Shown: one piece after another, positions 10,198 to 25,274 of the stretch
How positions within the stretch are numbered: the stretch's first letter is position 1
Layout: each line of letters opens with the position of its first letter
DNA from: an uncultured Planctomycetota bacterium
GTDB lineage: Bacteria > Planctomycetota > Brocadiia > CAIUPP01
Direction: 5' to 3'
Length of the DNA: 64,000 nucleotides
Assembly: GCA_903901045.1 (NCBI GenBank)
Contig: CAIUPP010000061.1
Location: 38,374-102,373, forward strand
Notes under the pieces: generated by a model
Seen by the model: the letters and a program-made list of their open reading frames with translations, nothing else
What the model was told of the DNA's origin: nothing
Databases searched by the model: none
Made by a program: the position numbers and the translations under genes

Positions 10198-10207
10198 GGC
10201 GGCCTCC

Positions 10208-11443
10208 TCACTTCCTCTTCGTCATTTGCGGCAGAAAGATGCTCTGCAACAGCGCGCGCACCTTCTGGTTGCGCCAGTCATTCTCATCCGGGATCAGCTT
10301 GAGCGCTTCCTCCAGCAACTGCCCCTCGCGCGCCGCGTCGTGGTTGCTCAGCGCCACGCGAATCTCGCCGGCGATCTTCTCCCACTTCGCATCCACCGCG
10401 GTCTTCGCCGCGATCAGCCCCCGGCTGGCCGCTAGGTAATCCTCCCCCTTGGTCAGCTTGGAAAGCACCGCCAGCGCGCATTCGTACTGCTGCTGCGCCA
10501 GGTAGGGGCGTTCCGCCTGAAGCGCGCGCCCCGACTCGACATAGTAATGCGCGCGCGCGCGGCGTTCCACGTCGCTGAGCTGGGCGTAGGTGAGGTCGTC
10601 CAGCGAGTTCTCGATCCGGCCGCGCACGAGGACGCGCATGACGCCTATCGTTCCGTCCTCTTTAGTGATCTTGACGTCCGCCTCCCCGCCGCTGACGCCG
10701 GAGACGACGTATTCCCAGGGATCGTCCAGCTTGGTCACTTGGACAATCTGGTCCGGGCTGACCTCAAGCGTGGCGATCGCCGGCCGCTTATTGCCATCCT
10801 TATCCGCCTTCGAAATGGAAAGCCAGCGGTTCTCGCCCACGCGGATGAGAATGGTGGGTATCTGGATTACGCCGCTGCTGGTGTCCTTATTCCTTCCGAG
10901 GATGAGCGCGCTGACGCCGACGGCCAGCAGCAGGCCCACGACCGCGGCGATCAGCAGCTTCACGTTGAGCTTGGCGCTGCCGCCTCCCTGCGTGGCGGCG
11001 GGGGAGGGCGCGGCCTGGCCCGTCCCCGGCGTCACCGGCTGCCAGCCGGCCGGGATGGCCGGCGCGCGCGACGGGGCGACGGCGGTCGAAGGCGCTCCCT
11101 TCTGCGGCGCGCTCCCCGGCGCTGAAGCGCCGATGATCTCAAAGCGCATCTCGATATCGCCCACGGTGAACAGGTCGCCGTTCTCCAGGATCGATTCGCG
11201 CACGGGATTGCCCCCGACGGTGATCCCGTTGCGGCTGTCCAGGTCGCGCAGGACGAAATGCCCCTTCTCCTCGGTGATCCGCGCATGCTGGCGGCTGATC
11301 GAAGCCTGGTCCAGGATGATCTCGCATTCCGGGTTGCGCCCGATGGTGGCGACGGGGCCGGTGAGGATGAAGCTGCGCCCCTGCAACGGAGGGGTCAGGA
11401 TCGTCAGGCGCGGGCGTCCGGTTCCGGATGAAGTCGCGCTCAT
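10208..11443 (-). CDS. FHA-domain membrane protein
   Basis: N-terminal FHA (GRNPECEIILDQASISRQHARI...RDLDSRNGI) and one TM helix (LLIAAVVGLLLAVGVSALIL). Confidence 0.7.
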   Translation of the reverse strand: MSATSSGTGRPRLTILTPPLQGRSFILTGPVATIGRNPECEIILDQASISRQHARITEEKGHFVLRDLDSRNGITVGGNPVRESILENGDLFTVGDIEMRFEIIGASAPGSAPQKGAPSTAVAPSRAPAIPAGWQPVTPGTGQAAPSPAATQGGGSAKLNVKLLIAAVVGLLLAVGVSALILGRNKDTSSGVIQIPTILIRVGENRWLSISKADKDGNKRPAIATLEVSPDQIVQVTKLDDPWEYVVSGVSGGEADVKITKEDGTIGVMRVLVRGRIENSLDDLTYAQLSDVERRARAHYYVESGRALQAERPYLAQQQYECALAVLSKLTKGEDYLAASRGLIAAKTAVDAKWEKIAGEIRVALSNHDAAREGQLLEEALKLIPDENDWRNQKVRALLQSIFLPQMTKRK

Positions 11444-11790
11444 GCAGACTCCTCAAGTCGCAAAGCGTCGCCGGGCATCAGCCCGACGCCGTCCAGGGCC
11501 CCGGCGGGCAATTCCAGCACGCACCGGGCGCCCCAGCAGGAGGCCAGCCGCCAGGGCTTCAGGCCAGGCGTCACTTTGCGCACCACCCAATCATCGTCCA
11601 GAAAGACCGCGTCGATCGCAAACCGCATGAAGAAAGTATGGATGCTCGCGCAGCGCTCGATCAACATGCCGCCGCCGGGGGGCAGACCGTCGCGCCCCAG
11701 CAGCCCGCGCATGCGCGCCGCCGTCGTCCGCGCTATCTCCACCCGGTCCGCAAGCACGCGGCCCGTGCGACTGTGGACCAATTTTACCAT
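11440..11790 (-). CDS. DUF192 (COG1430) family protein
   Basis: MVKLVHSRTGRVLADRVEIARTTAARMRGLLGR...MLIERCASIHTFFMRFAIDAVFLD matches DUF192. ATG at 11790. Confidence 0.65.
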   Translation of the reverse strand: MVKLVHSRTGRVLADRVEIARTTAARMRGLLGRDGLPPGGGMLIERCASIHTFFMRFAIDAVFLDDDWVVRKVTPGLKPWRLASCWGARCVLELPAGALDGVGLMPGDALRLEESA

Positions 11791-11792
11791 AG

Positions 11793-12310
11793 AATTGATA
11801 AGTGATGAGTGATGAATGTTGATTGATAATTGGTCATTGTTCGGCCTATTCCTGGCAAGACGTGACTGTGCGCACGGGGGCCCGATAGTTCGCCGTCTTC
11901 GAAGAGGCAACGCAGATCGCCGTCAACTCACCGACTTCCCGCAAGAGGCCCTCCATGCGTTTGGCCGGAATCATTTCAGCCGCCGCAATCAGGCGCAGCC
12001 AGTACTGGGCCTCGCGCAATTCTTTGACGACGATCTGCAGCTTGTGCGCAAAATCTCTCTTGCTCTCCGCGCCGCACGCTTCGCTGTAATTTGCCCCCGC
12101 AGAAGTGGCCGCGCGGAAAAGCTGAAGACTTACGTGCTGCGCCAGCGATGTTTTCGGCAGGGCCGAGGCAAGTCCGTAGGTTCGCGCGCCGAATCGAAGG
12201 AACCTCTCGCACAACTCCCTGCTATTCATCATCCCCTCGCCAACATGATAATTGTCGTTCTCCTGCTCCAATTATCAATCATCACTTATCACTCATCCAT
12301 TATCAATTCT
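11793..12310. repeat. cassette A: four-helix-bundle gene bracketed by ~40-bp inverted repeats made of tandem heptamers (GTGATGA/TTGATAA units)
   Basis: Left arm AATTGATAAGTGATGAGTGATGAATGTTGATTGATAATTG (~11793-11836). The reverse complement of the right arm (~12270-12310) is GAATTGATAATGGATGAGTGATAAGTGATGATTGATAATTG. Confidence 0.8.
11846..12232 (-). CDS. four-helix-bundle protein, '23S rRNA intervening-sequence protein' family (TIGR02436/PF05635-like), copy A
   Basis: Family core ATSAGANYSEACGAESKRDFAHKLQIVVKELREAQYWLRL; paralogous to copies B-D. Confidence 0.8.
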   Translation of the reverse strand: MMNSRELCERFLRFGARTYGLASALPKTSLAQHVSLQLFRAATSAGANYSEACGAESKRDFAHKLQIVVKELREAQYWLRLIAAAEMIPAKRMEGLLREVGELTAICVASSKTANYRAPVRTVTSCQE

Positions 12311-12311
12311 C

Positions 12312-13241
12312 TTATCTCGTCATCAATTTAAGAACAATCGGCCCGAAGATCATGATGAAAATCGTGGGGAAAATGAACAGGATGAGGGGCAGAAGGATCT
12401 TGACCGGCGCTTCCATCGCGAGCTTCTCGGCAGTCTGGCTGCGGCGCGTGCGCATCTGGTCGGCCTGGATGCGCAGGATCGGGCCGAGGCTGGAGCCGAG
12501 CTCGTCGGCCTGGATCAGCGCACTGACCACGCTGTTGAGTTCGGAAGCGTCCACGCGGCGGCTCAGTTCGCGCAACGCCTGCGCGCGCGTGCGGCCCAGC
12601 TGGATGTCGCGCACCGTCTGCCCCAGTTCCACCCCGAGCGGCCCGGGGCCGAGTTTCTTCACGATGCGCGCGAGCGCCTGCGTGAAGTCCAGCCCGGCCT
12701 CGACCGAGAGGGTGAGCAGGTCCAGCGCGTAGGGGAGCCCGCGGCGGATTTCGTCGCGGCGCGCTTTCACCCGCGAACGCAGCCAGAGCAGCGGCATGTA
12801 CATGCCGCCGAGGGCGAAGATGAGAATGATCGCGTTGAAGTTCATCCGGAGGTTGAACAGCGCTCCCAGGAGCCCCCCGCAAATCCCCCCCAGCAGCACC
12901 ATCCCGAGGAACTCGTCGGCGCTGACCCCTTCCGGGTAGGAGGCGCTGCGCAGTTGTTTTTCGGCCCAGATGCGAGGGGCGAGCAGGAAGGACTTCTCCG
13001 CCGGCCGGCCCGTGGCCATTTCGACGCGCGCCGAGACCCTCGCCAGCACGAACGAGAGCGCCCGCGCGGGGGGCCGCAGCAGCTTGAACAGCGGCGAGGA
13101 GGCCGGCCGCCCCAGGCTGCGGTACTGCCGCGCCTCGGCGCGGGCCCCCATCAGGGTGCGCGCCAGCGTATACGCCAGGAGCGCCACGCTCGTCCCCGCG
13201 CACAGCGCCAGCAGCATCGTCTGCAGCGATCCGTCTTCCAT
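12312..13241 (-). CDS. tadC: Flp pilus assembly protein TadC (T2SS-F domain)
   Basis: ATG at 13241 (MEDGSLQTMLLALCAG...). GspF-like domain and TM helices. Confidence 0.85.
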   Translation of the reverse strand: MEDGSLQTMLLALCAGTSVALLAYTLARTLMGARAEARQYRSLGRPASSPLFKLLRPPARALSFVLARVSARVEMATGRPAEKSFLLAPRIWAEKQLRSASYPEGVSADEFLGMVLLGGICGGLLGALFNLRMNFNAIILIFALGGMYMPLLWLRSRVKARRDEIRRGLPYALDLLTLSVEAGLDFTQALARIVKKLGPGPLGVELGQTVRDIQLGRTRAQALRELSRRVDASELNSVVSALIQADELGSSLGPILRIQADQMRTRRSQTAEKLAMEAPVKILLPLILFIFPTIFIMIFGPIVLKLMTR

Positions 13242-13246
13242 TCCGC

Positions 13247-14119
13247 TCACACCTTGATCGAAACGATTCGCCAGATCATGAACACTCCGATCGCCTCCAT
13301 CACCACCACGCCCGCCATCATCAGCCAGCCGAGCCAGTGCGTGAACATGGGCCGCATGAGCTCCGGGCTCCAGGCGTTCAGCGCCAGGAAAATCAGCACC
13401 GGCAGCAGGCCGATGATCACCCCCTGCATTTTCCCCTGCGCGGTCAGCGAGGAGATCTTCCCCTGGATGCGGTGGCGGTCGCGGATGGTGTCGGCGATGT
13501 TGTCGAACACCTCGGCGAGGTTCCCGCCCACCTCGCGGCTGATGAGGATGGAGGTGATGAGAATGTCCAGGTCCTCGCCCGGCATGCGGTCGAGCAGGTG
13601 CTGGAGCGCGTCCTCCATCGTGACGCCCAGGCGCATCTCCTGCACCATCAGGCGCATCTCCTGCCCCATCGGGTTCTCCGTCTCGCGCGCAATCAGCTCG
13701 AACGCCGCCGGCAGGCTGTGGCCCGCGCGCAGACTGTTGCCCATCGCCACCAGCGCGTCCTCCAACTGCACGCCGAACTTCTTGTCCCGCCGCCACTTGA
13801 GGAAGCGCACGATGATGGTGGGGGTCGCGAACGCCGCGATCCCCACGAAAATCGCCAGCACGACGTTCAACGTCATGACGGCGAAAATAATGAACACGAC
13901 CAGCGTGGAAAGGAAAGAGAGGTAGAGGATCTGCTGGACTGTCATGGTCAGGTACATTGCGTCGAGGGTGCGCGTGGCGCCGGAGACGTACTTCTCCTCG
14001 TAGGTCTTGAACCCCTTGGAGAGGAACGCCATCAGCCCGTACATCAGCAGCACGACGGCGAAGAACGCCGCGCCGAGGGTCACCACCGTCCAGGCCTGAC
14101 TCAGTTGGCCGGGGTTCAT
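13247..14119 (-). CDS. tadB: Flp pilus assembly protein TadB (T2SS-F domain)
   Basis: 290 aa polytopic protein with GspF-like domain, adjacent to tadC and cpaF. Confidence 0.85.
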   Translation of the reverse strand: MNPGQLSQAWTVVTLGAAFFAVVLLMYGLMAFLSKGFKTYEEKYVSGATRTLDAMYLTMTVQQILYLSFLSTLVVFIIFAVMTLNVVLAIFVGIAAFATPTIIVRFLKWRRDKKFGVQLEDALVAMGNSLRAGHSLPAAFELIARETENPMGQEMRLMVQEMRLGVTMEDALQHLLDRMPGEDLDILITSILISREVGGNLAEVFDNIADTIRDRHRIQGKISSLTAQGKMQGVIIGLLPVLIFLALNAWSPELMRPMFTHWLGWLMMAGVVVMEAIGVFMIWRIVSIKV

Positions 14120-14120
14120 C

Positions 14121-15755
14121 TCATTCCTCCACCGGCTTGAACAGTGCCAGGTCCACCGGCACGCCGCGCTCGCGCAGCTCCTGCACGAACTTCGGGATTG
14201 CGCCGGTGGCCGTCATCACCCCCAGCACGCGGCCATGCTCGTCGTATCCCTTCTGTCGGAACTCGAAGATCGGCTGCATGATGACCGTGTCCTGCTCCAT
14301 GCCGGTGATCTCGGAGATGTTGGTGATCTTGCGCGTGCCGTCCGGCAGGCGCGCGCCGTGGACGATGAGGCTGATGGCGGCGGTGATCTGCTCGCGGATG
14401 GCGCGGCTGGGCAGATCGAGGCCGGCCATGAGCACGAGCGTTTCCAGGCGCGCCAGGACGTCGCGCGGGCTGTTCGCGTGGAGCGTGGTGAGCGAGCCAT
14501 CGTGGCCGGTGTTCATGGCCTGGAGCATGTCGAGCGCCTCGCCGCCGCGGCACTCGCCGACGACGATCCGGTCGGGCCGCATGCGCAGGGCGTTGATGAC
14601 GAGCTTTCGGATCGGCACCTCCCCCTTCCCCTCGATGCTGGGGGGCTTGCTTTCCAGGCTGATCACATGCTCCTGCGCGAGTTGCAGTTCGGCGGCATCC
14701 TCAATGGTGATGATGCGCTCGGTCGATGGAATGAAGCCGCTGAGGATGTTCAAGAGGGTGGTCTTGCCCGAGCCGGTGCCGCCGCTGATGACGGCGTTCT
14801 TGCGGTTGACCACGCCGATCTGAAGGAAATCGGCCATCGCCTGCGAGAGCGAGCCGAAGCGGATGAGGTCGGTGGTGGTGAACGGGGTGCGCGCGAATTT
14901 GCGGATGGTGAGCGTGGGGCCGGTGAGCGCCAGCGGCGGGATGATGGCGTTCACGCGCGAGCCGTCGGCCAGGCGCGCGTCCACCATGGGGCTGGACTCA
15001 TCCACGCGCCGCCCGATGGGCGCCAGGATGCGCCGGATGACCGCCAGAAGCTGCTCGTTGCTGGTGAAGCGCTTGTCGGTCAGCTCCAGCCGGCCATGCC
15101 GCTCGATGTAGATCTTGTCCCAGCCGTTGACCATCACTTCGTCCACGGAATCGTCGGCCAGGAAATCCTCCAGCGCGCCCAGCGCGATGGCCTCGTCCAC
15201 GACCTCCTTGACCAGCGCCTCCGAGGTGAGCCAGGAGGGGCGCTCCGAGGCGAACTTGGCGACGGCGGCGCGGGCGGCGACCGAGGTTTTGCCCCGCACT
15301 TCCTCCGTGGTCTTCTCCGTCAGGTCGGTGTGCTTGAGGTCGAGAGAGGCGAGGATTTCATCATGGATCTTCTTCTTCAGTTCGACCGGCGTGCGGCGGT
15401 CCGGGCCGAGGCGGGGATGTTTCGCGGAACTGGGCGGCTTGCCCACCGCTTCGGGGGCGGCCTCGCCGGCATGGAAGGTGAGCGTGAACGGCCCGATGCG
15501 AATGACGTTGCGCTCCCCCAGCGGCGCCTGCCCGATCACCTTGGCGCTGTTGAGGAAGGTGCCGTTGCGGCTGCCCAGGTCGTGCAGCACGTAGGCCTTG
15601 TCCTCGTAAGCGACGATGCAATGCTCGCGAGAGATGCTGGGGTGGTCGAGCACGAGGTGGTTGACGCCGGCCTTCTTGCCGATCTTGAAGGGCAGCGGGT
15701 CCAGCGGAACGCTGCGCGCGGAGCCGCTTTCGTCTCGCAGGATCAGTACCGCCAT
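14121..15755 (-). CDS. cpaF: CpaF/TadA secretion ATPase with N-terminal FHA domain fusion
   Basis: FHA N-terminus (IGKKAGVNHLVLDHPSISREHCIV...LHDLGSRNGTFLN), then Walker A (GGTGSGKTT) and VirB11/CpaF motifs. Confidence 0.9.
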   Translation of the reverse strand: MAVLILRDESGSARSVPLDPLPFKIGKKAGVNHLVLDHPSISREHCIVAYEDKAYVLHDLGSRNGTFLNSAKVIGQAPLGERNVIRIGPFTLTFHAGEAAPEAVGKPPSSAKHPRLGPDRRTPVELKKKIHDEILASLDLKHTDLTEKTTEEVRGKTSVAARAAVAKFASERPSWLTSEALVKEVVDEAIALGALEDFLADDSVDEVMVNGWDKIYIERHGRLELTDKRFTSNEQLLAVIRRILAPIGRRVDESSPMVDARLADGSRVNAIIPPLALTGPTLTIRKFARTPFTTTDLIRFGSLSQAMADFLQIGVVNRKNAVISGGTGSGKTTLLNILSGFIPSTERIITIEDAAELQLAQEHVISLESKPPSIEGKGEVPIRKLVINALRMRPDRIVVGECRGGEALDMLQAMNTGHDGSLTTLHANSPRDVLARLETLVLMAGLDLPSRAIREQITAAISLIVHGARLPDGTRKITNISEITGMEQDTVIMQPIFEFRQKGYDEHGRVLGVMTATGAIPKFVQELRERGVPVDLALFKPVEE

Positions 15756-15860
15756 ATCATCCTCTCCCGTTCAGGCCGGTCATGGGTCCGCCGCGCCGGG
15801 GCGCAGCGTTCTTAAGCGCGGAGGCAAGGCAGAGCCTGGCCCCGGCGACGGCATGCGCCG

Positions 15861-16727
15861 CTACGGTTGCGGAACAAACTCTTCCAGCGACCCCTGCTTC
15901 TTCAGGCGCTCGTCTCGGTCCTTGCGGGCGGTGGCGGCCAGGTCGAGCAGGTTCTTGTCGCTGACATCCTGAGCCTCCGGGACGTTGGTGTCGGCGACCG
16001 GGCTCCGCAGGGACATGGTCAGCGCGCCATCCTGCTGCGCGTAGACCAGAAGGTTCGCCTCCAGCGGGCTGACCGCCACGGTGATGGTGCTGTAGCTCTT
16101 GACGCGCGCGCCGTTGCTGATGACGTACTCCTCGTCATGCGTGCGGCTGTCCACGGCGAGGATGCGCACGTTGTCCAGCAGCAGCACGGTGTGGCTGGCG
16201 GTAGCGCCGGTCATCGGGGCGCCCGCGGCGGCCGGGGCGCGAGCCGCCGCCCCTTGCTGCGTGCTGGTCGGGAACGTGCCGATGACGTCCACCCGGCTCC
16301 CGGGAACCAGGTTGCCGGCGACGCCGGTGACGTTATCCACGCGCAGCGTGACCGCGCGCTCGCCGGCGTTGAGCTTCTGCTCGAGCTTCTCCACCGGCTG
16401 CCGGAAATAACTCCAGCGCAGCGGCTCGCCGCGCTCCACGGTCTTGTTGATGACCTGCCCGAGGAACCGCTGGTCGTCGGCCATGATGTCGTCCGCCGTG
16501 ACGGTCGACTCGGTGACGATCTTGCCGGGGAGGTTGTCCACGTCCTTGTAGAGCATCTTCGGCAGGACGGGGGTGCCCGCCGTGATACGCTCGCCGGCCG
16601 CCGCGATGCGCTGCGGCTTGAACTTGTTCTGGAAGTCGTTCTGCCGGTTCTGAAGCACCTTCTGGAACCCATAGACGGCGACGAGGCCCAGGACCACGGC
16701 CAGGATCAAGGCGAGCTTGTTCTTCAC
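15861..16727 (-). CDS. cpaB: Flp pilus assembly protein CpaB/RcpC (SAF domain)
   Basis: Likely GTG start at ~16727 preceded by GGAGG. TM anchor (MKNKLALILAVVLGLVAV) and CpaB-type domain. Confidence 0.8.
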   Translation of the reverse strand: MKNKLALILAVVLGLVAVYGFQKVLQNRQNDFQNKFKPQRIAAAGERITAGTPVLPKMLYKDVDNLPGKIVTESTVTADDIMADDQRFLGQVINKTVERGEPLRWSYFRQPVEKLEQKLNAGERAVTLRVDNVTGVAGNLVPGSRVDVIGTFPTSTQQGAAARAPAAAGAPMTGATASHTVLLLDNVRILAVDSRTHDEEYVISNGARVKSYSTITVAVSPLEANLLVYAQQDGALTMSLRSPVADTNVPEAQDVSDKNLLDLAATARKDRDERLKKQGSLEEFVPQP

Positions 16728-17233
16728 TGCATTTCCTCCTTGGGGCCCGCTGCGGCGGGACCCCGGTTGGGGACGGAGGCCTGGCGCATGAGGGTGACGG
16801 CTGAGCCGCCTCCTGCGCCCGCCTCGACGATGCTTATGATACACCAACTGCCGGTAGGGTCTGCAAATGTCAGGGGCATCCCGCCGGGCTCCTCCATCAT
16901 GCCCGGCAAGCGTTGCGTTGTCCAGCCCCGCGCGGGCATTTCATGCCTGTAGAACTCCGCGACCGCGTCGGCGGACTCGCGGCTGACGTAGCGAACCAAT
17001 ACGCGCCCCGAGCCCGGCGCGGAGTTCAGGATGCCGGCCAGTTGCGATTCCGGCGGCGCGGGGATGTTCTCCAGCGCCCGCCCCGCCCTGCCCGTTGCCC
17101 CGCGCTCCACAATTGCGGGCAATAATCCGTAATGGCCGATGGCGAAAGACAAGGCTACGATAAGCCCGGCGCCTGCAAGACGGAAAACGATTTCTGACTT
17201 CTGATTCCTGAATTCTGATTTCTGATTTGCCAT
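16724..17233 (-). CDS. hypothetical small membrane protein; N-terminus (MANQKSEFRNQKSEI) encoded by heptamer-repeat arm
   Basis: 169 aa with one TM helix. Overlaps cpaB start by 4 nt. The first 15 codons are the TTCTGAT tandem repeat. Confidence 0.4.
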   Translation of the reverse strand: MANQKSEFRNQKSEIVFRLAGAGLIVALSFAIGHYGLLPAIVERGATGRAGRALENIPAPPESQLAGILNSAPGSGRVLVRYVSRESADAVAEFYRHEMPARGWTTQRLPGMMEEPGGMPLTFADPTGSWCIISIVEAGAGGGSAVTLMRQASVPNRGPAAAGPKEEMQ

Positions 17234-17702
17234 GTTTCACATGCTACGTTGACAATTCGTCCTGTCTGAGTGAGTCCGCATTCTTCCGCGACTTGTACGT
17301 GGTGACCGCGGCGACGAAGATACGGATCAACTGGTCTGCCTCGTCGAGCATCCCGGTCAGACGCTTTGCGGGCAAGAGTCCGGCTTCGGCTATCAGCCGC
17401 AGCCAATACTCGCTCTCGCGCAATTCCTTCAAAGATATCTGCATCTTGTGAAGGAAATCCTGGCGGCTTTCCGCCCCTGACGCCTCACAGTAGTTTGCCC
17501 CGGCGGAGGTGGCGGCCCGCATGAGTTGAAGGCCGACATGCCGCCCCGTGGCCGACTTGGTCAGCGCATTTGCCACATGAATACTTCGGACTCCGAATTG
17601 CAGCAGCCTCCGGTTCAAGTCGTGCTTGTCCATGCTGTGCGCTCCCGATGAAACCTCACACTGCTCTCCGCCCGAGGCACAAATCAGAACTCAGAAATCG
17701 TT
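17186..17702. repeat. cassette B: four-helix-bundle gene bracketed by inverted heptamer-repeat arms (TTCTGAT units)
   Basis: Left arm CGATTTCTGACTTCTGATTCCTGAATTCTGATTTCTGATTTG. Right arm reverse complement is AACGATTTCTGAGTTCTGATTTGTG (shorter arm). Confidence 0.75.
17244..17633 (-). CDS. four-helix-bundle protein, 23S-IVS-protein family, copy B
   Basis: Family core ATSAGANYCEASGAESRQDFLHKMQISLKELRESEYWLRL. Confidence 0.8.
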   Translation of the reverse strand: MDKHDLNRRLLQFGVRSIHVANALTKSATGRHVGLQLMRAATSAGANYCEASGAESRQDFLHKMQISLKELRESEYWLRLIAEAGLLPAKRLTGMLDEADQLIRIFVAAVTTYKSRKNADSLRQDELST

Positions 17703-18721
17703 TACCACCGTTTCCAAAGATTCTGCGTCGCATCATTCACCGCGGGCAGCGCGACGGCGCCAAGCAGGTCGGCGGCCTCTCCCAGCACCGCGGCGGAGGT
17801 GTGCCCTTGCTCGCCGGCGGCCAGCCGCGTTCCATTCCCCGTGACGTGGCCGGTCAGGTCCATCGTGAACTCCCACTGCGGGCGGCTCGTGGGGTTGGGG
17901 TACGTGCCGGTGATGTAATTTCCCAGCGTGGTGGGCGCCTCGTCCGTTGCCCGGAAGACGGAGGGGAAGTAGGGGGGGCTGTACGTGGCGCGCAGGTCCG
18001 CGTGGCGACGTTCGAGCCAGTGCGTGCCGCCGACGCCGTCGAAGGCGGATGCGATCCAGGCGGTGGTGTTGTCGATGACCGGCGGAGTGGCCTCGTCGGC
18101 GGTTACGAACCCGCCGCCGAGCTCCACTCCACCAGCTAGAGGGTTCAAGTAATGTGCGGGGGAAAATTTGTCGCCATATTCCGTATTCGAGACTTCCGTG
18201 ATCCCCTTGACCGCGTCCCAGACGAAGCTCTGCGTGGTCACCCCCAGCGCGTAATTCCAGAGGCTGACGGCAAGCCGCTCGCGGTCGAACGTGTCCGGCT
18301 GGCCGCCCCCCATCAGGGGGCCGGTCGTCAATTGGGTGGGGATTTCCTGGCGGTAATAGTCGTCGAGCTGGCTTGAGAGCTCGGACGCCTCCAGCGTCAG
18401 GTCTCCCTGGGCGGCCGCCGTCTGGCCGCCGCTGACGGGGCGGACATTGTCCGGCGTCCCCCCGCCGGAGGGCCAGAGCTTCATCAGCAACAGGTCCGCC
18501 GGCTGAGCCGTGGGCATCCAGACGGCAAACGTCGCCGCCTTGACGGCGCGCTGCCGGGTCAGCGTCGCATAGCCGAAGTAAAGCACCCCCAGCACGATCA
18601 GCATGTACAGCGGCATGACCAGCGCGGTTTCGACCATCGCCGTTCCGCGGAGCGAACGACAACGGCGAGCGTAGAGTGTAGAGTGCAGAGTGATGAGTGT
18701 AGAGCTATTCATTTTTCTCAT
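17702..18721 (-). CDS. tadE: TadE/TadG-like pseudopilin with long repeat-encoded leader
   Basis: Contains RGTAMVETALVMPLYMLIVLGVL (class-III signal / TadE-like N-terminus). Leader residues STLITLHSTLY are encoded by the GTAGAGT repeat arm. Confidence 0.7.
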   Translation of the reverse strand: MRKMNSSTLITLHSTLYARRCRSLRGTAMVETALVMPLYMLIVLGVLYFGYATLTRQRAVKAATFAVWMPTAQPADLLLMKLWPSGGGTPDNVRPVSGGQTAAAQGDLTLEASELSSQLDDYYRQEIPTQLTTGPLMGGGQPDTFDRERLAVSLWNYALGVTTQSFVWDAVKGITEVSNTEYGDKFSPAHYLNPLAGGVELGGGFVTADEATPPVIDNTTAWIASAFDGVGGTHWLERRHADLRATYSPPYFPSVFRATDEAPTTLGNYITGTYPNPTSRPQWEFTMDLTGHVTGNGTRLAAGEQGHTSAAVLGEAADLLGAVALPAVNDATQNLWKRW

Positions 18722-19167
18722 GGGCCATGTTCCTCTTCACAGTTACGACAGATCGGACCGCCATGGCGGTTAACTCACTGCATTCCCGCAAGGCGCCGTC
18801 GAGTTGTGCCGGCGGCAACAAACGGCTCTCCCTGGCAAGAGTCAGCCAGTAGTCCGTTTCGCGCAGTTCTTTGATGACAACCTGCAGCTTATGCACGAAA
18901 TCCGCACGGCTCTCAGCGCCCTTTGCCTCCCTGTAATTTGCCCCAGCCGACGTGCCCGACCGTAGCACCTGCTTGGCAATCACTCTGCCAGCCATGGTCT
19001 TGGGCATAGCCTGCGTAAGGCGAATCACCTCGATAGCGTAGGCCAGCAGGCGCTTGTCCAGCATGCCCTCACGTTCTGCCATCGCCATAACTCCCCGCTC
19101 AGGTCCTTGTCCTCGTCCTTGTTCACTCTGCATTCATCGCTCTGCACTCTACACTCTACGCTCGCCG
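18665..19167. repeat. cassette C: four-helix-bundle gene bracketed by inverted heptamer-repeat arms (GTAGAGT units)
   Basis: Left arm GGCGAGCGTAGAGTGTAGAGTGCAGAGTGATGAGTGTAGAGC. Right arm reverse complement is GGCGAGCGTAGAGTGTAGAGTGCAGAGCGATGAATGCAGAGTGA. Confidence 0.8.
18705..19088 (-). CDS. four-helix-bundle protein, 23S-IVS-protein family, copy C
   Basis: Family core RSGTSAGANYREAKGAESRADFVHKLQVVIKELRETDYWLTL. The 3' end overlaps the tadE-like start by 17 nt. Confidence 0.8.
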   Translation of the reverse strand: MAMAEREGMLDKRLLAYAIEVIRLTQAMPKTMAGRVIAKQVLRSGTSAGANYREAKGAESRADFVHKLQVVIKELRETDYWLTLARESRLLPPAQLDGALRECSELTAMAVRSVVTVKRNMAHEKNE

Positions 19168-21738
19168 TTAATGTTCCACCACATCGCTCATCTGCCTATT
19201 CCCATAGTCGAGAACCGGCGTGATCGGCTTGCCGTACTCGTCGCGGCGCTGGCTCATCTGGCGCATCTTGAGGGCGATGCTGGGGTCTCCCTGCCCGTTG
19301 AATTGGGTGGCCCAGCCGCTTGAATCGTAGCCGGAGGCGAACTGCGCGCTGAGCACCGTATCCCACAGGTAGGAGAGGGCGTTTTCGGTTTCGAGCGTGA
19401 TCGCCTGCCCCTGAATGATCTCGTCATCCAGGTCGTAATCCTGCATCTGATCGCGCGAGGGATAGAGCTTTGCCGTCGCGCCCGCCATGTACAGATTGTT
19501 CGGGTCCTGCTCGACCCAGTTTGCTCGATCCGCCTTGCCGCCGAACTGGTACCGCGTTCCGCCGCCGTCGTCCGGAACGCCCACGCGCGAGCAGGAGATG
19601 GCGACGTACCCCCAGGGCGGCTGTAGCGCCTGCGGGAAGAGCATGGGGAGGTCGGGTTGCTTGTAGACTCCGACATTGACGCCATACTTGAAGAACTCAT
19701 CCGTCAGCACCAAGGGGTATCCGGCCGGTGCCGCGGGGGCGTTGCGGAGAATGTAGGAATCGTACCGGTGAACGCGGCTGTCCAGAAAGTCGGTGTCCGT
19801 CCATCCACGCTGACCGTCGGTGATGGACAGATCATAGGAGCGCGGGTCCGGCGGGTTGATGCGACCGGAGGGGATATCCGCGATGAAGACCCGGATATCC
19901 GTGGCCCCGTCGCGGTTGTTATCGTAACCGCCGCAGACTTTACATACTTCCTTGTGCGTCCCCTGGTTGGGATCATTGGGATCGTTGGGGACATCCACAA
20001 CGCCGCTCCCGCCGCAGCCCAAGGGAGGCTCCGGGCAGGGCTCCGTCTGGTAGTAGGCGTCCTCCGGAGGGTCCTCATTGGGCTGGAGGATCGCCAGGCT
20101 GCCGGGCGGACGCAGCGGATAGGTGTGCCGCCAGAACGGCTCGCGGGGACCCGCCGTGCCCGTATTGTCCGGGATCGGATTGAACCAGGCCGTCCACGCC
20201 GGCAGTTGGTTCCCGGAGATGCCGCGGTCGCCGAAGGCATGGGTGTAGACGTACCGATTCATATTCCTTTCGCGGGACAGCATCGCCCCGGAGGTCTCGT
20301 GATCGTATTGCCATTGCTTGAGTCCACCGTGCTCCGGGACCACTTCGGTAAGCTGCTGGCGCGACCAGACCTGCTCGGTCGGGTCGAACCACTTGCGCCA
20401 GCGGCCGTCCGCGTCACCGGCGGTGAGGCTGAACCCGCCCGCCGTGACGCTGAAGGAGTTCGGGTCGAAGCCGTGGACGCCGATCGTGACCGGGCCCAGA
20501 GTGGTCGAGATGGTCGGGGGGTCGCTCAAGGTCAAATGGGCGTGGCCGATGGTGACCTGGGTGGGGTCCCCGATGGTCGCGCTGGCGTCGCCGGGGAAGT
20601 GGATAACGTTGGTGACGTTCATCCGCACTTCCACCCCGGCGATCGTGGTCGTGTTGCTGGTCATGTCGGTGTAGGAGTGCGCGGCGTTGTCCCAGAGGTA
20701 CAGGTGGCCGTTGCCCGCGTTCTTGAAAGTCTGGGAAAGGTTGCCGCAGGTGACTTTCGTCCCCTCCTTGGTCCCGTCGCCGTCCATGTCCACTTTCTCG
20801 AAGGAGATAGTCGGCAGGGAGGGGCCGCCGTTCGCGGCCTGTCCCCAGACCACCCAGCCGAGGTCGTCGGTCTTGACCAGGTAAATCTCCTCGGTCAGCG
20901 CCCCGTTGGTGTAGAAGCTGATCTTCCAGCGGTTGGGGGATTCCTGGCTGATGATCACCTCGGTTTCGGTGACCCCTTCCAGGGAGTACAGGATGTGCCA
21001 CTGCCCGTCCACCAGCGTCACCTGGATCATCTCCTTGCTGCCGCCGGTGAGGTTGGTGACGCGCCAGCCGTTGCCCAGTTGCTCGATGCTGAAAGAGATG
21101 AGACTCTCCGGGTAAGGGAAGAGCCGCTGGCTGGGGAAGACGCTGAGGCGCTCTCCGCCGGCGCGCGTGCCGATGGCGAACATCTCCTCGGCGAGCAGGC
21201 GCGGGGTGAGGATGGCGACGGCGTTCTCCGTCTGCGAGAGCTGCACCATCAGGCTCTTGGCCTGCGGCAGGGCGGTGTTGGCGAGGTCCCATGCCTGCCG
21301 GTGCGCCATGACGGCCGGGCCGGAGGCAACGCCGCCGGTGCGGATCAGTTCCATGCGCGCGGCGACGCCGGTGACGTTCACATCCACGGCATACTTCAGC
21401 GAGTTGTAGTACGTCTGCGCCATGGCGCTGTTGATCCAGCCGATGGCGCTCAGGCTGTTCGCTTCCACCATCGCGCCGGAGTACGCCGCCGAGTCCGCCG
21501 CCACCTGCACCCGCGTGCGCCCCTCGATGATCCGCCCCAGGTTGTACACCAGCGCCACGAACCCCACCAGCACGATCAGGCTCGCCGCGGCGAAGATAAT
21601 CCCCTGGCCGCGCTCGTCGCGCAGGAAACGGCGAAAACTGAGAACTGAGAACTGGGAACTGAAAGTTGCGAAAGAACGGCCCCTCCGCGCCATAGCGCGG
21701 TGGACCGGAATCGGCTCGTTATTCTTGCATGCACTCAT
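19168..21738 (-). CDS. tadG: large TadG-like pilus-assembly/pseudopilin protein (856 aa)
   Basis: N-terminal RRFLRDERGQGIIFAAASLIVLVGFVALVYNLG (TadG N-terminal domain type). The leader contains repeat-encoded FSSQFSVLSF. Confidence 0.65.
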   Translation of the reverse strand: MSACKNNEPIPVHRAMARRGRSFATFSSQFSVLSFRRFLRDERGQGIIFAAASLIVLVGFVALVYNLGRIIEGRTRVQVAADSAAYSGAMVEANSLSAIGWINSAMAQTYYNSLKYAVDVNVTGVAARMELIRTGGVASGPAVMAHRQAWDLANTALPQAKSLMVQLSQTENAVAILTPRLLAEEMFAIGTRAGGERLSVFPSQRLFPYPESLISFSIEQLGNGWRVTNLTGGSKEMIQVTLVDGQWHILYSLEGVTETEVIISQESPNRWKISFYTNGALTEEIYLVKTDDLGWVVWGQAANGGPSLPTISFEKVDMDGDGTKEGTKVTCGNLSQTFKNAGNGHLYLWDNAAHSYTDMTSNTTTIAGVEVRMNVTNVIHFPGDASATIGDPTQVTIGHAHLTLSDPPTISTTLGPVTIGVHGFDPNSFSVTAGGFSLTAGDADGRWRKWFDPTEQVWSRQQLTEVVPEHGGLKQWQYDHETSGAMLSRERNMNRYVYTHAFGDRGISGNQLPAWTAWFNPIPDNTGTAGPREPFWRHTYPLRPPGSLAILQPNEDPPEDAYYQTEPCPEPPLGCGGSGVVDVPNDPNDPNQGTHKEVCKVCGGYDNNRDGATDIRVFIADIPSGRINPPDPRSYDLSITDGQRGWTDTDFLDSRVHRYDSYILRNAPAAPAGYPLVLTDEFFKYGVNVGVYKQPDLPMLFPQALQPPWGYVAISCSRVGVPDDGGGTRYQFGGKADRANWVEQDPNNLYMAGATAKLYPSRDQMQDYDLDDEIIQGQAITLETENALSYLWDTVLSAQFASGYDSSGWATQFNGQGDPSIALKMRQMSQRRDEYGKPITPVLDYGNRQMSDVVEH

Positions 21739-21815
21739 GGTATTGTTACCTCAATCTCAACATCGCGCCATCTTTCAGTTCTCAGTCTTCAGTCTTCAGT
21801 CTTCAATTCTCGCCG
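21630..21815. repeat. 'empty' heptamer inverted-repeat pair (GAGAACT units) whose ~105-bp loop holds only the tadE-stop/tadG-start junction
   Basis: Left arm GGCGAAAACTGAGAACTGAGAACTGGGAACTGAAAG. Right arm reverse complement is GGCGAGAATTGAAGACTGAAGACTGAAGACTGAGAACTGAAA. Confidence 0.7.
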
Positions 21816-21822
21816 TCCTTCA

Positions 21823-22407
21823 TCACTCGCCCCACGGATGCGCCAGCACGCAACTGCCGGTCATCAGCCAGTGCGCCGCGCCTCCCCACTTCGAGCGGTC
21901 CACGTCGAGGCCGGGGGTCAGGTCGCCCAGCGCGTAGAGGGCGTCGCCGGCGATTGGCACATTCAATTCGTAGTCATGCGATACGTCGGCGTGGATCACC
22001 GGCTGGCCGTTGACCGAATCGGGGTAGACGTTGACGTCGGTCTTCAGTTCCGCCGCGGCGCTGCCGGGGAGCGTCCCCCAGCCGGGCAGGGTGATGGTGT
22101 CGTTGGCGACGACGCCGGAAGTTCCCGTGATGCGGCTCAGCGGGATCAGCGCCGCGCGCTTGCAGGCGGTCGGGTCGATCGCCGGCGACTGCGCCAGCCC
22201 CGCGCGCGCCGCGCAAAAAGCGCTGTACTCGATCACCTGCTGCGCGATGAACAGATGGGCCAGTTGAATGATGACCAGCGTGATCAGCAGTTGGAGCGGG
22301 AAGATGATGGCGTATTCAACCAGCGCCTGCCCCGACTCCGCGCGGGCGGCGCGGCGAGAACTGAAAACTGAGAACTGAAAACTGAGAACTGAGAGTTGGC
22401 GGTTCAT
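21823..22407 (-). CDS. tadE: TadE-like pseudopilin
   Basis: RRAARAESGQALVEYAIIFPLQLLITLVIIQ is a TadE N-terminus. Leader MNRQLSVLSFQFSVFSS is encoded by the repeat arm. Confidence 0.75.
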   Translation of the reverse strand: MNRQLSVLSFQFSVFSSRRAARAESGQALVEYAIIFPLQLLITLVIIQLAHLFIAQQVIEYSAFCAARAGLAQSPAIDPTACKRAALIPLSRITGTSGVVANDTITLPGWGTLPGSAAAELKTDVNVYPDSVNGQPVIHADVSHDYELNVPIAGDALYALGDLTPGLDVDRSKWGGAAHWLMTGSCVLAHPWGE

Positions 22408-22824
22408 CGCGCAGCTCCTTTGTTCGACTTCGCCGTCACCACGGACTTCACGCCTATGGAGATCAGTTCATTCACCTCACTGGCAATGCCGTCCAGGCGA
22501 GCCGGCTTCAACAAATGGGCGTTGCGGCAAAGCTCAATCCAATAGAGCGTCTCGCGCAGTTCTTTCACTACAATCTGCATCTTGTGCGCAAAGTCGGCGC
22601 GACTCTCGGCGCATCTCGCCTCGCAGTAGTTGGCGCCAGGCGACGTGCCGGATCGCAGCAATTGCAGTCCCACATGCCGCCCCGCCGCCGTCTTGGGCAG
22701 CGCGTTCGTCATCGCGATGACCCTCACGGCCAGTTCTTGCAGGCGCTCACCATAATTGCCGCTCTGCGCCACGTTTTATCCTCTCAGTTCTCAGTCTTCA
22801 GTTCTCAGTTTTCAGTTCTCGCCG
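22353..22824. repeat. cassette D: four-helix-bundle gene bracketed by inverted heptamer-repeat arms (GAGAACT units)
   Basis: Left arm GGCGAGAACTGAAAACTGAGAACTGAAAACTGAGAACTGAGAG. Right arm reverse complement is GGCGAGAACTGAAAACTGAGAACTGAAGACTGAGAACTGA. Confidence 0.8.
22404..22772 (-). CDS. four-helix-bundle protein, 23S-IVS-protein family, copy D
   Basis: Family core RSGTSPGANYCEARCAESRADFAHKMQIVVKELRETLYWIEL. GTG start. Confidence 0.8.
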   Translation of the reverse strand: MAQSGNYGERLQELAVRVIAMTNALPKTAAGRHVGLQLLRSGTSPGANYCEARCAESRADFAHKMQIVVKELRETLYWIELCRNAHLLKPARLDGIASEVNELISIGVKSVVTAKSNKGAAR

Positions 22825-22825
22825 T

Positions 22826-23374
22826 TTACTTCAGCAGCAACTCCATCCACGCCCACACAACCCCGATCCCGATGGCCACGCCGTACGGGATCGTCGTCGC
22901 CGGCGCGCCGTCGGCCGGCTTGGCGCGAAGAGTGAAGAGGGCGCGCAGGCTGGATTTGAGGCCGGACAGGAGCCGTCGCTGCCAGATCAGCACGCAGACG
23001 GCAATGGCCGCGCCCACGAGGGCGGCATACATCAGCGCGATGATCACGAAGCCGATGGCGCTGACGCCCGCCGCGCCCGCGAAGGGGGCCAGCGCGCCGA
23101 CGGCCCCCATCATCTTGACGTCTCCCGCGCCCAGGCTGCCCATGAAATAGACCACCAGCAAAATGCCCGCCCCCACCCCCGCCGCCAGCGCCGCGTTGCC
23201 GAGGTGCCAGAAGCCCGGCTGGTTCGTGTCCATCAGGTACGCGCTGGCCAGCCCGATCGCTAGCGCCCCCAGCGTCACCCAGTTATAAAGCTTCCCGCGC
23301 GCCATGTCGGTGTAGACGCACACGACCGCCAGCGCGAGAAGACAACCCTGCCGAACCAGTTCTATGGTTGCCAC
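22826..23374 (-). CDS. tadV: prepilin peptidase (A24 family; CpaA/TadV)
   Basis: 182 aa polytopic protein with the conserved GAGDVKMMGAVG motif. Confidence 0.85.
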   Translation of the reverse strand: MATIELVRQGCLLALAVVCVYTDMARGKLYNWVTLGALAIGLASAYLMDTNQPGFWHLGNAALAAGVGAGILLVVYFMGSLGAGDVKMMGAVGALAPFAGAAGVSAIGFVIIALMYAALVGAAIAVCVLIWQRRLLSGLKSSLRALFTLRAKPADGAPATTIPYGVAIGIGVVWAWMELLLK

Positions 23375-23406
23375 AGATCAACCCACCTCAATGTTCCTGC
23401 GATAAT

Positions 23407-23456
23407 GTGGCGCGGGTTATCCAACCCGCGGTCATCGTGCGTTCATTCCGCTTTCG
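23407..23456. repeat. family-4 element copy a (GCGGGTTATCCAACCCGC hairpin + CATCGTGCGTTCATTCCG tail)
   Basis: GTGGCGCGGGTTATCCAACCCGCGGTCATCGTGCGTTCATTCCGCTTTCG. Confidence 0.7.
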
Positions 23457-23603
23457 TCTCTCGCGGGCCTGCGGCCCGCGCCATATCGGCTTCAAGACCG
23501 GAAGCCCCGCGCGCTCCACTTCAAACGAATAACTCCGACCGCTGCGGGCGCAGAGGCCGGAGTTATCCATGCGACAACGCCCGATCGGGCAGCGGACGCG
23601 CCG

Positions 23604-23852
23604 TCAGAACGTATTGACGTTCTTTCCAGAAGTGGCGGTGTCCGCCTCGCTGCTCTTGTCCTGAACGGTCTGTTCCGTGCCGGTGCCGATCCGCTTGACT
23701 TCGCTGCCGAACAGCGCTCGGATCTGGTCCCCGAAGATCAGGATCACGGCGATGGAGCTGACCGCCACGAGCGCGACGATGATCGCGTACTCGGCCGTCG
23801 TCTGTCCCTTCCGGCTCTTCAACCCGCTCACCTTCATAATCCACTGACGCAT
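23604..23852 (-). CDS. flp: Flp/Fap pilin
   Basis: Flp motif G|QTTAEYAIIVALVAV after a short basic leader. Confidence 0.8.
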   Translation of the reverse strand: MRQWIMKVSGLKSRKGQTTAEYAIIVALVAVSSIAVILIFGDQIRALFGSEVKRIGTGTEQTVQDKSSEADTATSGKNVNTF

Positions 23853-23885
23853 TTCAGTACCCTCCAAAAGTTAACTCTTAAGACC

Positions 23886-24107
23886 CTATGGAATCGGAAG
23901 ACAAATCAGCGACGCCACATCCTGAAAGAAGTTCAGCAGCGCCGCCTGCATCGCCTCGATGGAAACCATCACCACGATCACCGTCCAGAACGCCACCAGC
24001 GCGTACTCCGTGGCGGCCTGCCCGGTTTCGTTCCGGAGCAGCGCCGACGGGTCGGAGCGCAGGTGAAGCATGGTCAGCAACTCGTGCATGGTCTTCTCTA
24101 ACTCCAT
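23886..24107 (-). CDS. flp: Flp/Fap pilin (second copy)
   Basis: Flp motif G|QAATEYALVAFWTVIVV. Confidence 0.8.
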   Translation of the reverse strand: MELEKTMHELLTMLHLRSDPSALLRNETGQAATEYALVAFWTVIVVMVSIEAMQAALLNFFQDVASLICLPIP

Positions 24108-24327: not shown

Positions 24328-24437
24328 TGCGCCAGCACCCCCACGATGGCGCGCGCTTTCCCGCAAAAGCGCGGCGCCCTTCGCTGCCCCGATACAGCGA
24401 GCGGCCAGTCCGCGTCCCGCGCCGCAGGCGCGGGGAA

Positions 24438-24545
24438 AAGAAAGCGGAAAGAACGCACGCTGATTGCGGGTTTGATAACCCGCGCTACATCGGCCTCACG
24501 AACCGGAAGAACTGCACGGTAATCGCGGGTTGGATAACCCTCGCC
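24438..24545. repeat. family-4 element copies c and d (reverse orientation), tandem, upstream of flp genes
   Basis: Reverse complement of 24438-24490 is GTAGCGCGGGTTATCAAACCCGCAATCAGCGTGCGTTCTTTCCGCTTTC. 24500-24545 is a more diverged copy. Confidence 0.7.
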
Positions 24546-25113: not shown

Positions 25114-25274
25114 ACTTCTCCTCTTCCCTGCTGCGCCGATCTATTCACCGCGGAGGCGCGGAGAACGAACGACGCCGTCTTTCATCTCTCAGTTCTCAGT
25201 CTTCAGTTCTCAGTTCTCGCCGTCCTGCGCATCTCCGGGGTGAAAAGGGCAAACGCCCGTCTCGGAGAGAACGT

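Follow-up and report, generated by a model that had tools for sequence, protein, structure and literature searches.

Intervening sequences (IVS) that lie within bacterial 23S rRNA and carry an open reading frame (ORF) of their own have been known since the early 1990s. Those with an ORF occur in Leptospira, Coxiella, Brucella, Xanthomonas and Haemophilus, at helix 25 or 45. To our knowledge, no explanation has been given of where these elements come from or of what their conserved ORF does. The 23S IVS of Coxiella burnetii measures 428 nt and is closed by a 28-bp stem formed by its terminal repeats, within which RNase III cuts (PMC4990558). Its 5' region contains tandem GACAGAT heptamers, of which some strains have two copies and others three, and the 5' cut falls where these repeats begin (PMC4990558). 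The same paper cites an older idea, according to which the IVS is a former mobile element whose ORF served mobility (PMC4990558). As is established biochemically, stems of at least 25 bp are generic substrates of RNase III (PMC4990558). Here we describe four units of comparable build, named cassettes A to D, that are located at gene junctions of a tad/Flp pilus operon in a 64-kb stretch of DNA from an uncultured Planctomycetota bacterium (contig CAIUPP010000061.1). This whole stretch is referred to as the window.

Other described elements share part of this architecture. In REPIN-RAYT systems and in pairs of miniature inverted-repeat transposable elements (MITE) with their autonomous partners, a gene is flanked by inverted repeats and geneless hairpins are found after stop codons. 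The cassettes of integrons are promoter-less, co-oriented single genes that depend on an upstream promoter and carry an imperfect inverted-repeat recombination site. The short tandemly repeated repetitive sequences (STRR) of heterocystous cyanobacteria consist of intergenic tandem repeats of 7 nt. Intergenic heptamer repeats of the TAACTGA type have been described from Beggiatoaceae, Cyanobacteria and Bacteroidetes, with no link to a four-helix-bundle protein (PMC4679880).

An earlier note on this DNA, made from its letters alone, had proposed four genes of the 23S-IVS family, predicted to encode four-helix bundles, in the gaps of the pilus operon. The four ORFs are indeed present, all on the minus strand (Table 1), and the family assignment proved correct for each of them. 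PF05635 matches the four proteins with 53-67 bits (E 1e-14 to 2e-18, for a gathering cut-off of 33.8 bits) and TIGR02436 with 77-85 bits (E ~1e-22 to 4e-24, for a cut-off of 24 bits). These are the sole Pfam and NCBIfam matches of the proteins, and the four-helix-bundle gene is the sole ORF of each cassette. Ahead of every ORF stands a purine-rich stretch that resembles a Shine-Dalgarno sequence. Searched with a profile of the four proteins, the 64 kb yield no further copy of the family. That the ORFs arose by chance in a GC-rich genome is ruled out by the family matches, by the ratio of nonsynonymous to synonymous substitution rates (dN/dS) and by their conservation in relatives. The gene labels of the operon were taken from Pfam matches on L001, a metagenomic contig identical to the window; such identical contigs turn up in several metagenomes. 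Our reading of these data, to which we give a probability of about 0.6, is that each unit is a self-contained cassette of the IVS type, which undergoes turnover as a piece of DNA and would be expressed by read-through from the operon.

Each gene is bracketed by inverted repeats. The earlier description of bracketed units of about 0.5 kb is borne out, the repeats measuring 25-51 nt with 88-98% complementarity and the units 473-525 bp. When pseudo-genes of the same size were placed in comparable loci, an inverted-repeat score of at least 14 was reached in 1/159 trials (0.6%). The arms are built as tandem heptamer arrays (period 7) with 3.4-5.7 copies each, and the heptamer differs from cassette to cassette. 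Predicted RNA folds of D and C are closed by stems of about 43-45 bp, with z-scores of -11.0 (D) and -5.6 (C) relative to dinucleotide shuffles. The two arms are not equivalent. On the sense strand, the purine fraction of the 5' arms is 0.67-0.73 for A, C and D and 0.48 for B. All four 5' arms contain stop codons in two or three frames, and none of the 3' arms has a stop in any frame. The 5' arm sets in at the TAA stop of the upstream gene (tadC, the tadE-like gene of 339 aa, tadG or tadV) or 1-2 nt past it, and in the case of A the ATG of the DUF192 gene, at 11790, lies immediately beyond the 3' arm. TAA precedes all four cassettes, although it is expected to be the rarest stop at about 65% GC. 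Among the metagenomic cassettes described below, TAA is found upstream of 15/37 versus 58/247 in the background, a modest enrichment that we do not rely on.

No Rfam family matches the cassettes. The hairpins are not intrinsic terminators, a possibility that is ruled out since no T-run follows the arms and no terminator-like match coincides with them. The cassettes contain no convincing promoter, sigma-70-like matches being confined to the A-type arm. In this 5' arm (TTGATAAT... units; 12251-12326, minus strand), three sigma-70-like -35/-10 matches are found, and the region holds five such matches in total versus 1.8 ± 1.6 in shuffled sequences. Judging from these matches, transcription of cassette A and of the DUF192 and FHA genes could start at an internal promoter in the A-type arm.

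All the structural features of the Coxiella IVS are found in the window cassettes except the location in rRNA. Both have an ORF of the S23p/PF05635 family in sense orientation in the loop, a stem of terminal inverted repeats (28 bp in Coxiella, 25-51 nt here), a size of about 430-520 nt and tandem heptamers of variable copy number in the stem region. Both lack a promoter of their own and need the host transcript (PMC4990558). The resemblance to ORF-bearing 23S IVS is therefore closer than had been claimed at first, as heptamer arrays are present in every arm, just as they are in Coxiella. The differences are also clear. The rRNA elements sit in helix 25 or 45, whereas the window cassettes lie between protein-coding tad genes, and Rfam finds no rRNA in the window. 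The window ORFs are intact, have Shine-Dalgarno-like sites and evolve under purifying selection, in contrast to the Coxiella ORF, which is decaying and apparently untranslated. In the window cassettes, unlike in the 23S IVS, the 3' arm can double as coding sequence of the next gene. Finally, excision by RNase III has been demonstrated for the 23S IVS and is a prediction for the window cassettes. The earlier note knew of no such cassette in a pilus operon. In the full-text literature, which covers few subscription journals, we found no description of IVS-like cassettes anywhere outside rRNA. What is new here is the IVS-type cassette in protein-coding operons, which is probably a member of a large class that is apparently undescribed in the searchable literature.

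Table 1. Cassettes, related hairpins and host operon in the window (positions in nt from the first letter of the window; arms as inverted-repeat halves unless specified)
Feature	Position	Size	Strand	Inverted repeat or arms	Upstream TAA stop	Neighbours and remarks
Cassette A	11791..12310	520 bp	minus	11791-11833 / 12268-12310, 43 nt, 88% complementary	12312-12314	tadC / DUF192; heptamers of GATAAGT/GATGAGT type
Four-helix-bundle ORF A	11846-12232		minus
Cassette B	17182..17706	525 bp	minus	17182-17206 / 17682-17706, 25 nt, 92% complementary; 5' arm 17682-17706, 3' arm 17182-17228	17702-17704	tadE-like (339 aa) / AF_1845-like membrane gene; heptamers GATTTCT / AGAAATC
Four-helix-bundle ORF B	17244-17633		minus
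Cassette C	18654..19176	523 bp	minus	18654-18704 / 19126-19176, 51 nt, 88% complementary	19168-19170	tadG / tadE-like (339 aa); heptamers GAGTGTA
Four-helix-bundle ORF C	18705-19088		minus
Cassette D	22352..22824	473 bp	minus	22352-22395 / 22781-22824, 44 nt, 98% complementary	22826-22828	tadV (prepilin peptidase) / tadE; heptamers GAGAACT
Four-helix-bundle ORF D	22404-22772		minus			GTG start
Empty hairpin	21623..21815		minus	21766-21815, 21623-21671		tadE / tadG; D-type heptamers, loop ~100 nt
Solitary D-type array	25187..25218		not assigned			TCTCAGT, 4.6 copies; no nearby partner arm
Empty hairpin	6535-6677			56-nt arms, 80% complementary		CAACGTC / TTGAACG units; 31-nt loop
Host tad/Flp pilus operon	8131..24107		minus			ORFs with the Pfam labels of L001; order on the minus strand: flp, flp, tadV, (D), tadE, (empty hairpin), tadG, (C), tadE-like, (B), AF_1845-like, rcpC, cpaF, tadB, tadC, (A), DUF192, FHA, FHA

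The comparison with orthologous operons carries most of the argument for cassettes as DNA units. Relatives were chosen from a graded series of homologues of the TadG-like protein and are named by locus; the junctions are named after the window cassette that occupies them, tadV/tadE (D), tadG/tadE-like (C), tadE-like/AF_1845 (B) and tadC/DUF192 (A). The closest relative, L084 (CpaF 94% and TadG 71% identical to the window), has cassettes at C, B and A and an empty hairpin at D. L086 has one at C and another between cpaF and tadB, L087 and L088/L096 have one at D only, L169 and L175-L182 have one between rcpC and cpaF, and L089 has a complete operon without any cassette. In total, six junctions are occupied within one vertically inherited operon. 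At the A site, the L084 cassette is 82.6% identical to that of the window over 516 nt, arms included, and at the C site the L084 ortholog is 93% identical in protein with a dN/dS of 0.11. The B junction is different. L084 holds there an A-type cassette that shares 79% DNA identity with its own A-site cassette over 515 nt including the arms, and that resembles window B over a 156-nt core only (69%). Homology between the two genomes stops exactly at the upstream stop codon and resumes past the 3' arm, from which it follows that gene and arms were copied or replaced together, as a unit. In more distant relatives, cassette proteins from the same site are 41-51% identical and those from different sites 40-53%, for 68-74% in CpaF. 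Since same-site proteins are no closer than cross-site ones, in spite of an evolution that between the window and L084 is about as slow as that of CpaF, replacement explains these figures better than orthology. Between the window and L084, dN/dS is 0.07-0.11 for the four-helix-bundle genes, 0.08 for cpaF, 0.30 for tadG and 0.34 for the tadE-like gene; as measured on these alignments, the four-helix-bundle protein is shown to be under strong purifying selection. The earlier wording, that the genes were inserted as discrete cassettes, is upheld by presence, absence and replacement at orthologous junctions. At these loci, cassettes are shown to be gained, lost, copied and replaced as DNA units at the junctions of a vertically inherited tad operon.

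Hairpins without a gene accompany the cassettes. The one next to cassette D in the window (21623-21815) contains no four-helix-bundle gene, yet its alignment to D passes the 5' arm and continues into the first codons of the gene ((A/G)TGGCGC...), as expected from an internal deletion. Its 3' arm lies within the annotated N-terminus of TadG ('FATFSSQFSVLSFRRFLRDERGQG'). By this alignment, it is probably an internally deleted D-type cassette. The hairpin at 6535-6677, also geneless and built in the style of cassette arms, is found in a short gap (around 6600) between long ORFs. Inverted heptamer arrays at 35937-35968 (TTCGCAA) and 36806-36843 (GATTAGC types) bracket a complete gene for an RNA methyltransferase of the SpoU family (35988-36794, minus strand; PF00588, E 1e-34), which means that heptamer hairpins are able to enclose an ordinary gene of about 800 bp. 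In relatives, empty hairpins occur at the D junction of L084 and L086, at the C and B junctions of L088 and at the C junction of L089; the heptamer of the one in L084 differs from that of window D. Sequence of the GATTTCT type is common to the B junctions of the window, L088/L096 and L169, and the gene is present only in the window. L088/L096 has arms of this type without a gene, and in L169 an array of the type is seen on the downstream (AF_1845) side only. L084 also has an array of AATCCGC heptamers (18469-18499) in its 195-nt gap between tadB and tadC, a junction that is only a few nt wide in the window; going by the repeat, the array may be what is left of another cassette site.

These observations raise the possibility that the hairpins came first, as intercistronic RNA elements acting in processing, stability or translational coupling, either belonging to the host or spreading independently, and that the genes are passengers in their loops. 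Geneless hairpins that relatives have at these junctions and that the window has at two places, the bracketed SpoU gene, the B-junction sequence that in L088/L096 and L169 (downstream array only) has no gene, and the existence of geneless intergenic heptamer repeats (PMC4679880) all agree with it. Set against this, in L084 gene and arms were copied jointly to another junction, the arms of the orthologous A-site cassettes travel with the gene, the empty hairpin beside D has kept the first four-helix-bundle codons and so points to deletion, 75% of the family genes examined in metagenomes have arms, and the stems do not display the G·U bias expected if they were selected as RNA. We regard a hairpin-first origin as unlikely.

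The 3' ends of the cassettes are intimately connected with the following genes. The earlier note had placed each cassette in an intergenic gap, abutting or overlapping both neighbours. This holds insofar as all four are at gene junctions; the 3' arms of B, C and D, however, are not intergenic and fall within the ORFs of the downstream tad genes. The stop of gene D overlaps the start of tadE (ATGA) and the D 3' arm encodes the TadE leader 'MNRQLSVLSFQFSVFSS...', so that the N-terminus of TadE reads through the arm as 'MNRQLSVLSFQFSVFSSRRAARAESG/QALVEY'. No other in-frame ATG, GTG or TTG is available to tadE ahead of G/QALVEY, its G/xxxxE prepilin motif. The tadE-like ORF begins 17 nt within the C gene and reads through the arm as 'MRKMNSSTLITLHSTLYARRCRSLRG/TAMVET', an arrangement that is kept at the C site of L084. 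The B 3' arm is translated as the N-terminus of the AF_1845-like protein ('MANQKSEFRNQKSEIVF...'). In three of the four cassettes, the stop-free 3' arm is hence shown to have been taken over as start and leader of the downstream tad gene. If our reading is correct, the cassettes illustrate how a start codon and a leader can be donated to a host gene.

The cassettes are not restricted to the pilus operon. The family is large, as a profile of the four window proteins retrieves 16,006 clusters at 50% identity, and 7,316 are left when E is limited to <= 1e-10. Its members are commonly annotated just as 'four helix bundle protein'. When JGI metagenomes were scanned using eleven aligned cassette proteins from tad operons, 80 loci with 40-56% identity were obtained, two of which are again in this type of tad operon. 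Flanking inverted repeats scoring at least 14 are present around 52 of the 69 homologues with enough flanking sequence (75%), to be compared with the 1/159 (0.6%) of the controls. Their arms are almost all heptamer arrays (median arm 36 nt, median element 484 nt), and in 36/52 elements purines predominate on the sense strand of the 5' arm. The neighbouring gene is on the same strand upstream in 34/40 loci and downstream in 33/40, with both neighbours in sense in 29 and both in antisense in 3. These neighbours include atpG/atpD, the binding protein and permease of an ABC transporter, NusB/LysA, lysyl-tRNA synthetase and a LolE-like protein, biotin carrier protein and methylmalonyl-CoA mutase, RfbC and a glycosyltransferase, and others. 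No rRNA was detected by Rfam in the 40 short metagenome loci. The density of heptamer arrays is 15-22 per 100 kb in cassette loci versus 1.0 in 80 unrelated tad loci. From these genomic contexts, the cassettes are not pilus-specific; they are part of a widespread class that extends over many operons and phyla.

When the heptamers of 39 arms are brought into phase, they give the circular consensus A-R-A-W-K-G-C, in which position 3 is an A in 99% of cases. This consensus contains 3.71 bits of information, compared with 2.29 ± 0.10 bits after column permutation, and 0/100 controls reach its value; as the arms (those of window A-D and of metagenome loci L090-L169, together with the Coxiella heptamer from PMC4990558) come from elements that are partly non-independent, this is a lead only. 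The shared consensus could reflect a common determinant for binding or cleavage.

Several carriers are in culture. Plasmid pNPUN01 of Nostoc punctiforme PCC 73102 has the cassette gene NPUN_RS34315 with arms of the AAGTCGG type, and plasmid pTS1 of Treponema saccharophilum is a carrier as well. In plasmid p1 of Planktothrix agardhii PCC 7805 (L171, 1950-2395), a co-oriented cassette with heptamer arms is located between the DISARM gene drmD and the BREX gene pglX, and in a plasmid of Candidatus Chlorohelix (L172, 1965-2395) another one lies between a helicase-related gene and an N6-DNA methylase gene. Such positions inside defence operons, together with the strong conservation of the protein, could suggest small defence or addiction modules, for instance nucleic-acid-binding proteins for which the hairpins would be regulatory sites. 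The contexts are mostly housekeeping operons, however, and no conserved partner gene is seen, which leaves a defence role very improbable.

The protein model, computed with AlphaFold2 from window sequences only and for monomers, shows four helices with a mean confidence (pLDDT) of 92.5. Structures of the S23p family are the best Foldseek matches: 2RLD with E 3e-7 and template modelling (TM) scores of 0.78-0.92, and 2GSC with E 3e-4. 2RLD is also the only structure found by sequence search (E 1e-26). The Avd protein from the diversity-generating retroelement (DGR) of a Bordetella phage (4DWL, 8UB7) aligns with TM scores of 0.72-0.85 and a root-mean-square deviation of about 2 Å, with an E-value of only 0.04. 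The entries 2RLD, 2GSC and 4DWL each list chains A-E, and the S23p protein Xcc0516 is reported to be a homopentamer (PMC4990558, citing Lin 2006). A kinship with Avd had been suggested in the earlier note. The four-helix-bundle fold does match, and the solved relatives are homopentamers, but profile similarity is absent: hhalign of the cassette proteins against the bAvd of the L087 DGR (PF22296) gives a probability of 0.5%, which amounts to no similarity. As far as the model goes, the likeness to Avd is at the level of the fold only.

The same note had seen neither a reverse transcriptase (RT) nor a pair of template and variable repeats (TR/VR) in the window, and we confirm this. A tblastn search with the RT and the bAvd of the L087 DGR has a best E of 0.13 in the window, and no RVT Pfam domain is found among the called genes of L001. 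There is no TR/VR pair near the cassettes, where the direct repeats are the four paralogous genes and the heptamer arrays only. The relative L087 itself has a DGR-like set at 71-3828, about 5 kb upstream of its tad operon, composed of a gene with an FGE-sulfatase domain, bAvd (PF22296) and RVT_1. One could imagine that the cassette genes are orphaned Avd genes, either left behind by DGRs or acting for them in trans, in view of the fold, of this nearby DGR in L087 and of the fact that PF05635 is the Pfam family most frequent in DGR loci (PMC10053308). Yet the window has no homologue of RT or bAvd and no TR/VR-like pair, the Avd of the L087 DGR belongs to a different Pfam family without profile similarity, and the cassettes have an architecture of their own, with hairpins in place of RT, template repeat and variable repeat. 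For the window, an orphan DGR is largely ruled out by the missing RT and TR/VR, and as a general account of the cassette genes the idea is extremely improbable.

How could such a cassette work? In the proposed scheme, it would consist of a promoter-less PF05635/TIGR02436 gene with its own Shine-Dalgarno sequence, placed in the loop of a hairpin whose arms contain about five heptamers each. Because no convincing promoter is found in the cassettes, transcription would start at the operon promoter and read through into them, and translation of this transcript would yield the four-helix-bundle protein. On the transcript, the arms would pair as a duplex of 25-45 bp, a predicted substrate of RNase III as in the rRNA IVS. 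By analogy with these, cleavage of the stems by RNase III is likely, and the operon mRNA would probably be severed at every cassette, except where ribosomes translating the 3' arm, or a bound protein, block the pairing. If cleaved, the cassettes would be polar brakes unless ribosomes or a bound protein separate the arms. The complementarity of the arms may be maintained in DNA, by copying from arm to arm or by slippage of the repeats. The protein, which is a homopentamer in the solved relatives, might bind its own heptamer arrays and serve the maintenance or the spread of the cassette, a speculation suggested by the match between a pentamer and about five heptamers per arm and by the conserved core of the heptamers.

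A number of observations weigh against our reading. The cassettes encode no transposase or recombinase (DDE, HUH/Y1, serine or tyrosine type), and since the arms differ within one genome, no single transposase recognizing terminal repeats would fit. No near-identical copy is present at two sites, the 79% pair of L084 being the youngest among paralogues. No target-site duplication was detected in 46 elements (direct repeats in the flanks 2.46 versus 2.38 ± 0.15 in shuffled pairings), although the arm boundaries are fuzzy and short duplications could escape detection. With three of the four 3' arms being downstream coding sequence, RNase III cleavage would strip the start codons from tadE, the tadE-like gene and the AF_1845-like gene. 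Among stem mismatches, G·U is not over-represented relative to A·C (89 versus 88 overall, 15 versus 18 when isolated), so that arm complementarity looks as if a DNA-level process maintained it instead of selection for paired RNA. By eye, the arms of window A and L084 A differ by three two-sided versus seven one-sided changes, a signal too weak to be of use, since two of the three fall at the outer boundary, which is fuzzy. Finally, the distribution is uneven: all 12 cassettes of these genomes, representing fewer than 12 independent events, fall within the tad operons (96 kb), the flanks (92 kb) have none, and the closest relatives of protein A that can be placed (58-92% identity) are all in the same type of operon, at three junctions.

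This clustering could mean local hopping combined with vertical inheritance, or a function for the host. In the latter case, the four-helix-bundle proteins would be dedicated accessory or regulatory parts of the planctomycete-type tad pilus, their position reflecting their function. The distribution would then be explained, as would a purifying selection on a par with that on the CpaF ATPase and the initiation of downstream tad genes inside the cassettes. Against such a role, the number of cassettes varies from zero to four over six junctions and the L089 operon is complete without one. A CpaF-based scan of a genome collection gave 80 distant tad loci (at most 58% identity), which also provided the above background for heptamer arrays, and none of them has a four-helix-bundle gene. 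Furthermore, the same subfamily with the same kind of arms is found in operons for ATP synthase, ABC transporters, tRNA synthetase and defence as well as in 23S rRNA, and same-site copies of distant relatives are no closer than cross-site ones. A dedicated pilus component therefore appears improbable to us.

A bolder version of the cassette interpretation would unite the rRNA IVS and the operon cassettes in one unrecognised mobile class. A pentameric, Avd-like four-helix bundle, their only protein, would recognize about five heptamers (xRAxxxx), the elements would spread into the 3' ends of transcribed genes, and empty heptamer hairpins, STRR-type repeats of cyanobacteria included, would be non-autonomous derivatives. 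Spread would depend on the hairpin and leave no target-site duplication, and it might be carried out by the protein itself or by a recruited reverse transcriptase, repair or replication factor. We put this forward tentatively and consider it doubtful in this complete form.

How the cassettes relate to other repeats can now be specified. With REPIN-RAYT and MITE systems they share a gene between inverted repeat units together with scattered geneless hairpins, and the presence/absence pattern, the copy at a new site and the geneless derivatives are all of the kind expected from such elements. They differ in that the protein is neither an HUH/Y1 transposase nor a known recombinase, in the lack of a target-site duplication and in arms made of tandem heptamers that change between cassettes. 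STRR and TAACTGA repeats have in common with the arms few-copy tandem 7-nt units near gene ends, in phyla rich in four-helix-bundle genes, and such arrays flank the Nostoc and Planktothrix cassettes. They are geneless direct arrays, whereas the cassettes consist of two inverted arrays around a specific gene family. Integron cassettes are likewise promoter-less, co-oriented single genes; the window units, by contrast, have no integrase, attI or attC, possess two arms and not one 3' site, and are scattered through an operon.

Our results suggest that the rRNA IVS may be the visible tip of a larger class of genes in hairpins, with heptamer arms, located in operon gaps and spanning Planctomycetota, Cyanobacteria, Chloroflexota, Spirochaetes and others. 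If this is correct, it would connect three unexplained things, namely the ORFs of the IVS, four-helix-bundle genes in multiple copies and heptamer repeats between genes, and processing by RNase III would be expected at widespread sites within operons. Tractable carriers would be available in culture with Nostoc punctiforme PCC 73102 and Planktothrix agardhii PCC 7805.

Other small genes and repeats were noticed along the way. On the contig of P0015, just upstream of a tad operon that has a D-site cassette, two genes for 127-aa proteins of PF13366 (PDDEXK_3) lie at locus positions 2771-3154 and 4745-5128, each alone between housekeeping genes; they may represent another family of small-gene cassettes with similar habits. 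In the window, a separate repeat family (23405-23460, 24407-24490, 24501-24549 and 25273-25356), with members of 50-83 nt that are up to 93% identical, alternates in orientation around the flp and fumarase genes. It has a REP-like or MITE-like look (REP, repetitive extragenic palindrome) and is not built of heptamers. Intergenic hairpins are also present at 4079-4187 (44-nt arms, 21-nt loop), at 26303-26377, where 9-mer repeats (AAAGGACCA) form 33-nt arms around a 9-nt loop, and at 35591-35814 (61-nt arms, 102-nt loop). This genome is unusually rich in intergenic inverted repeats.

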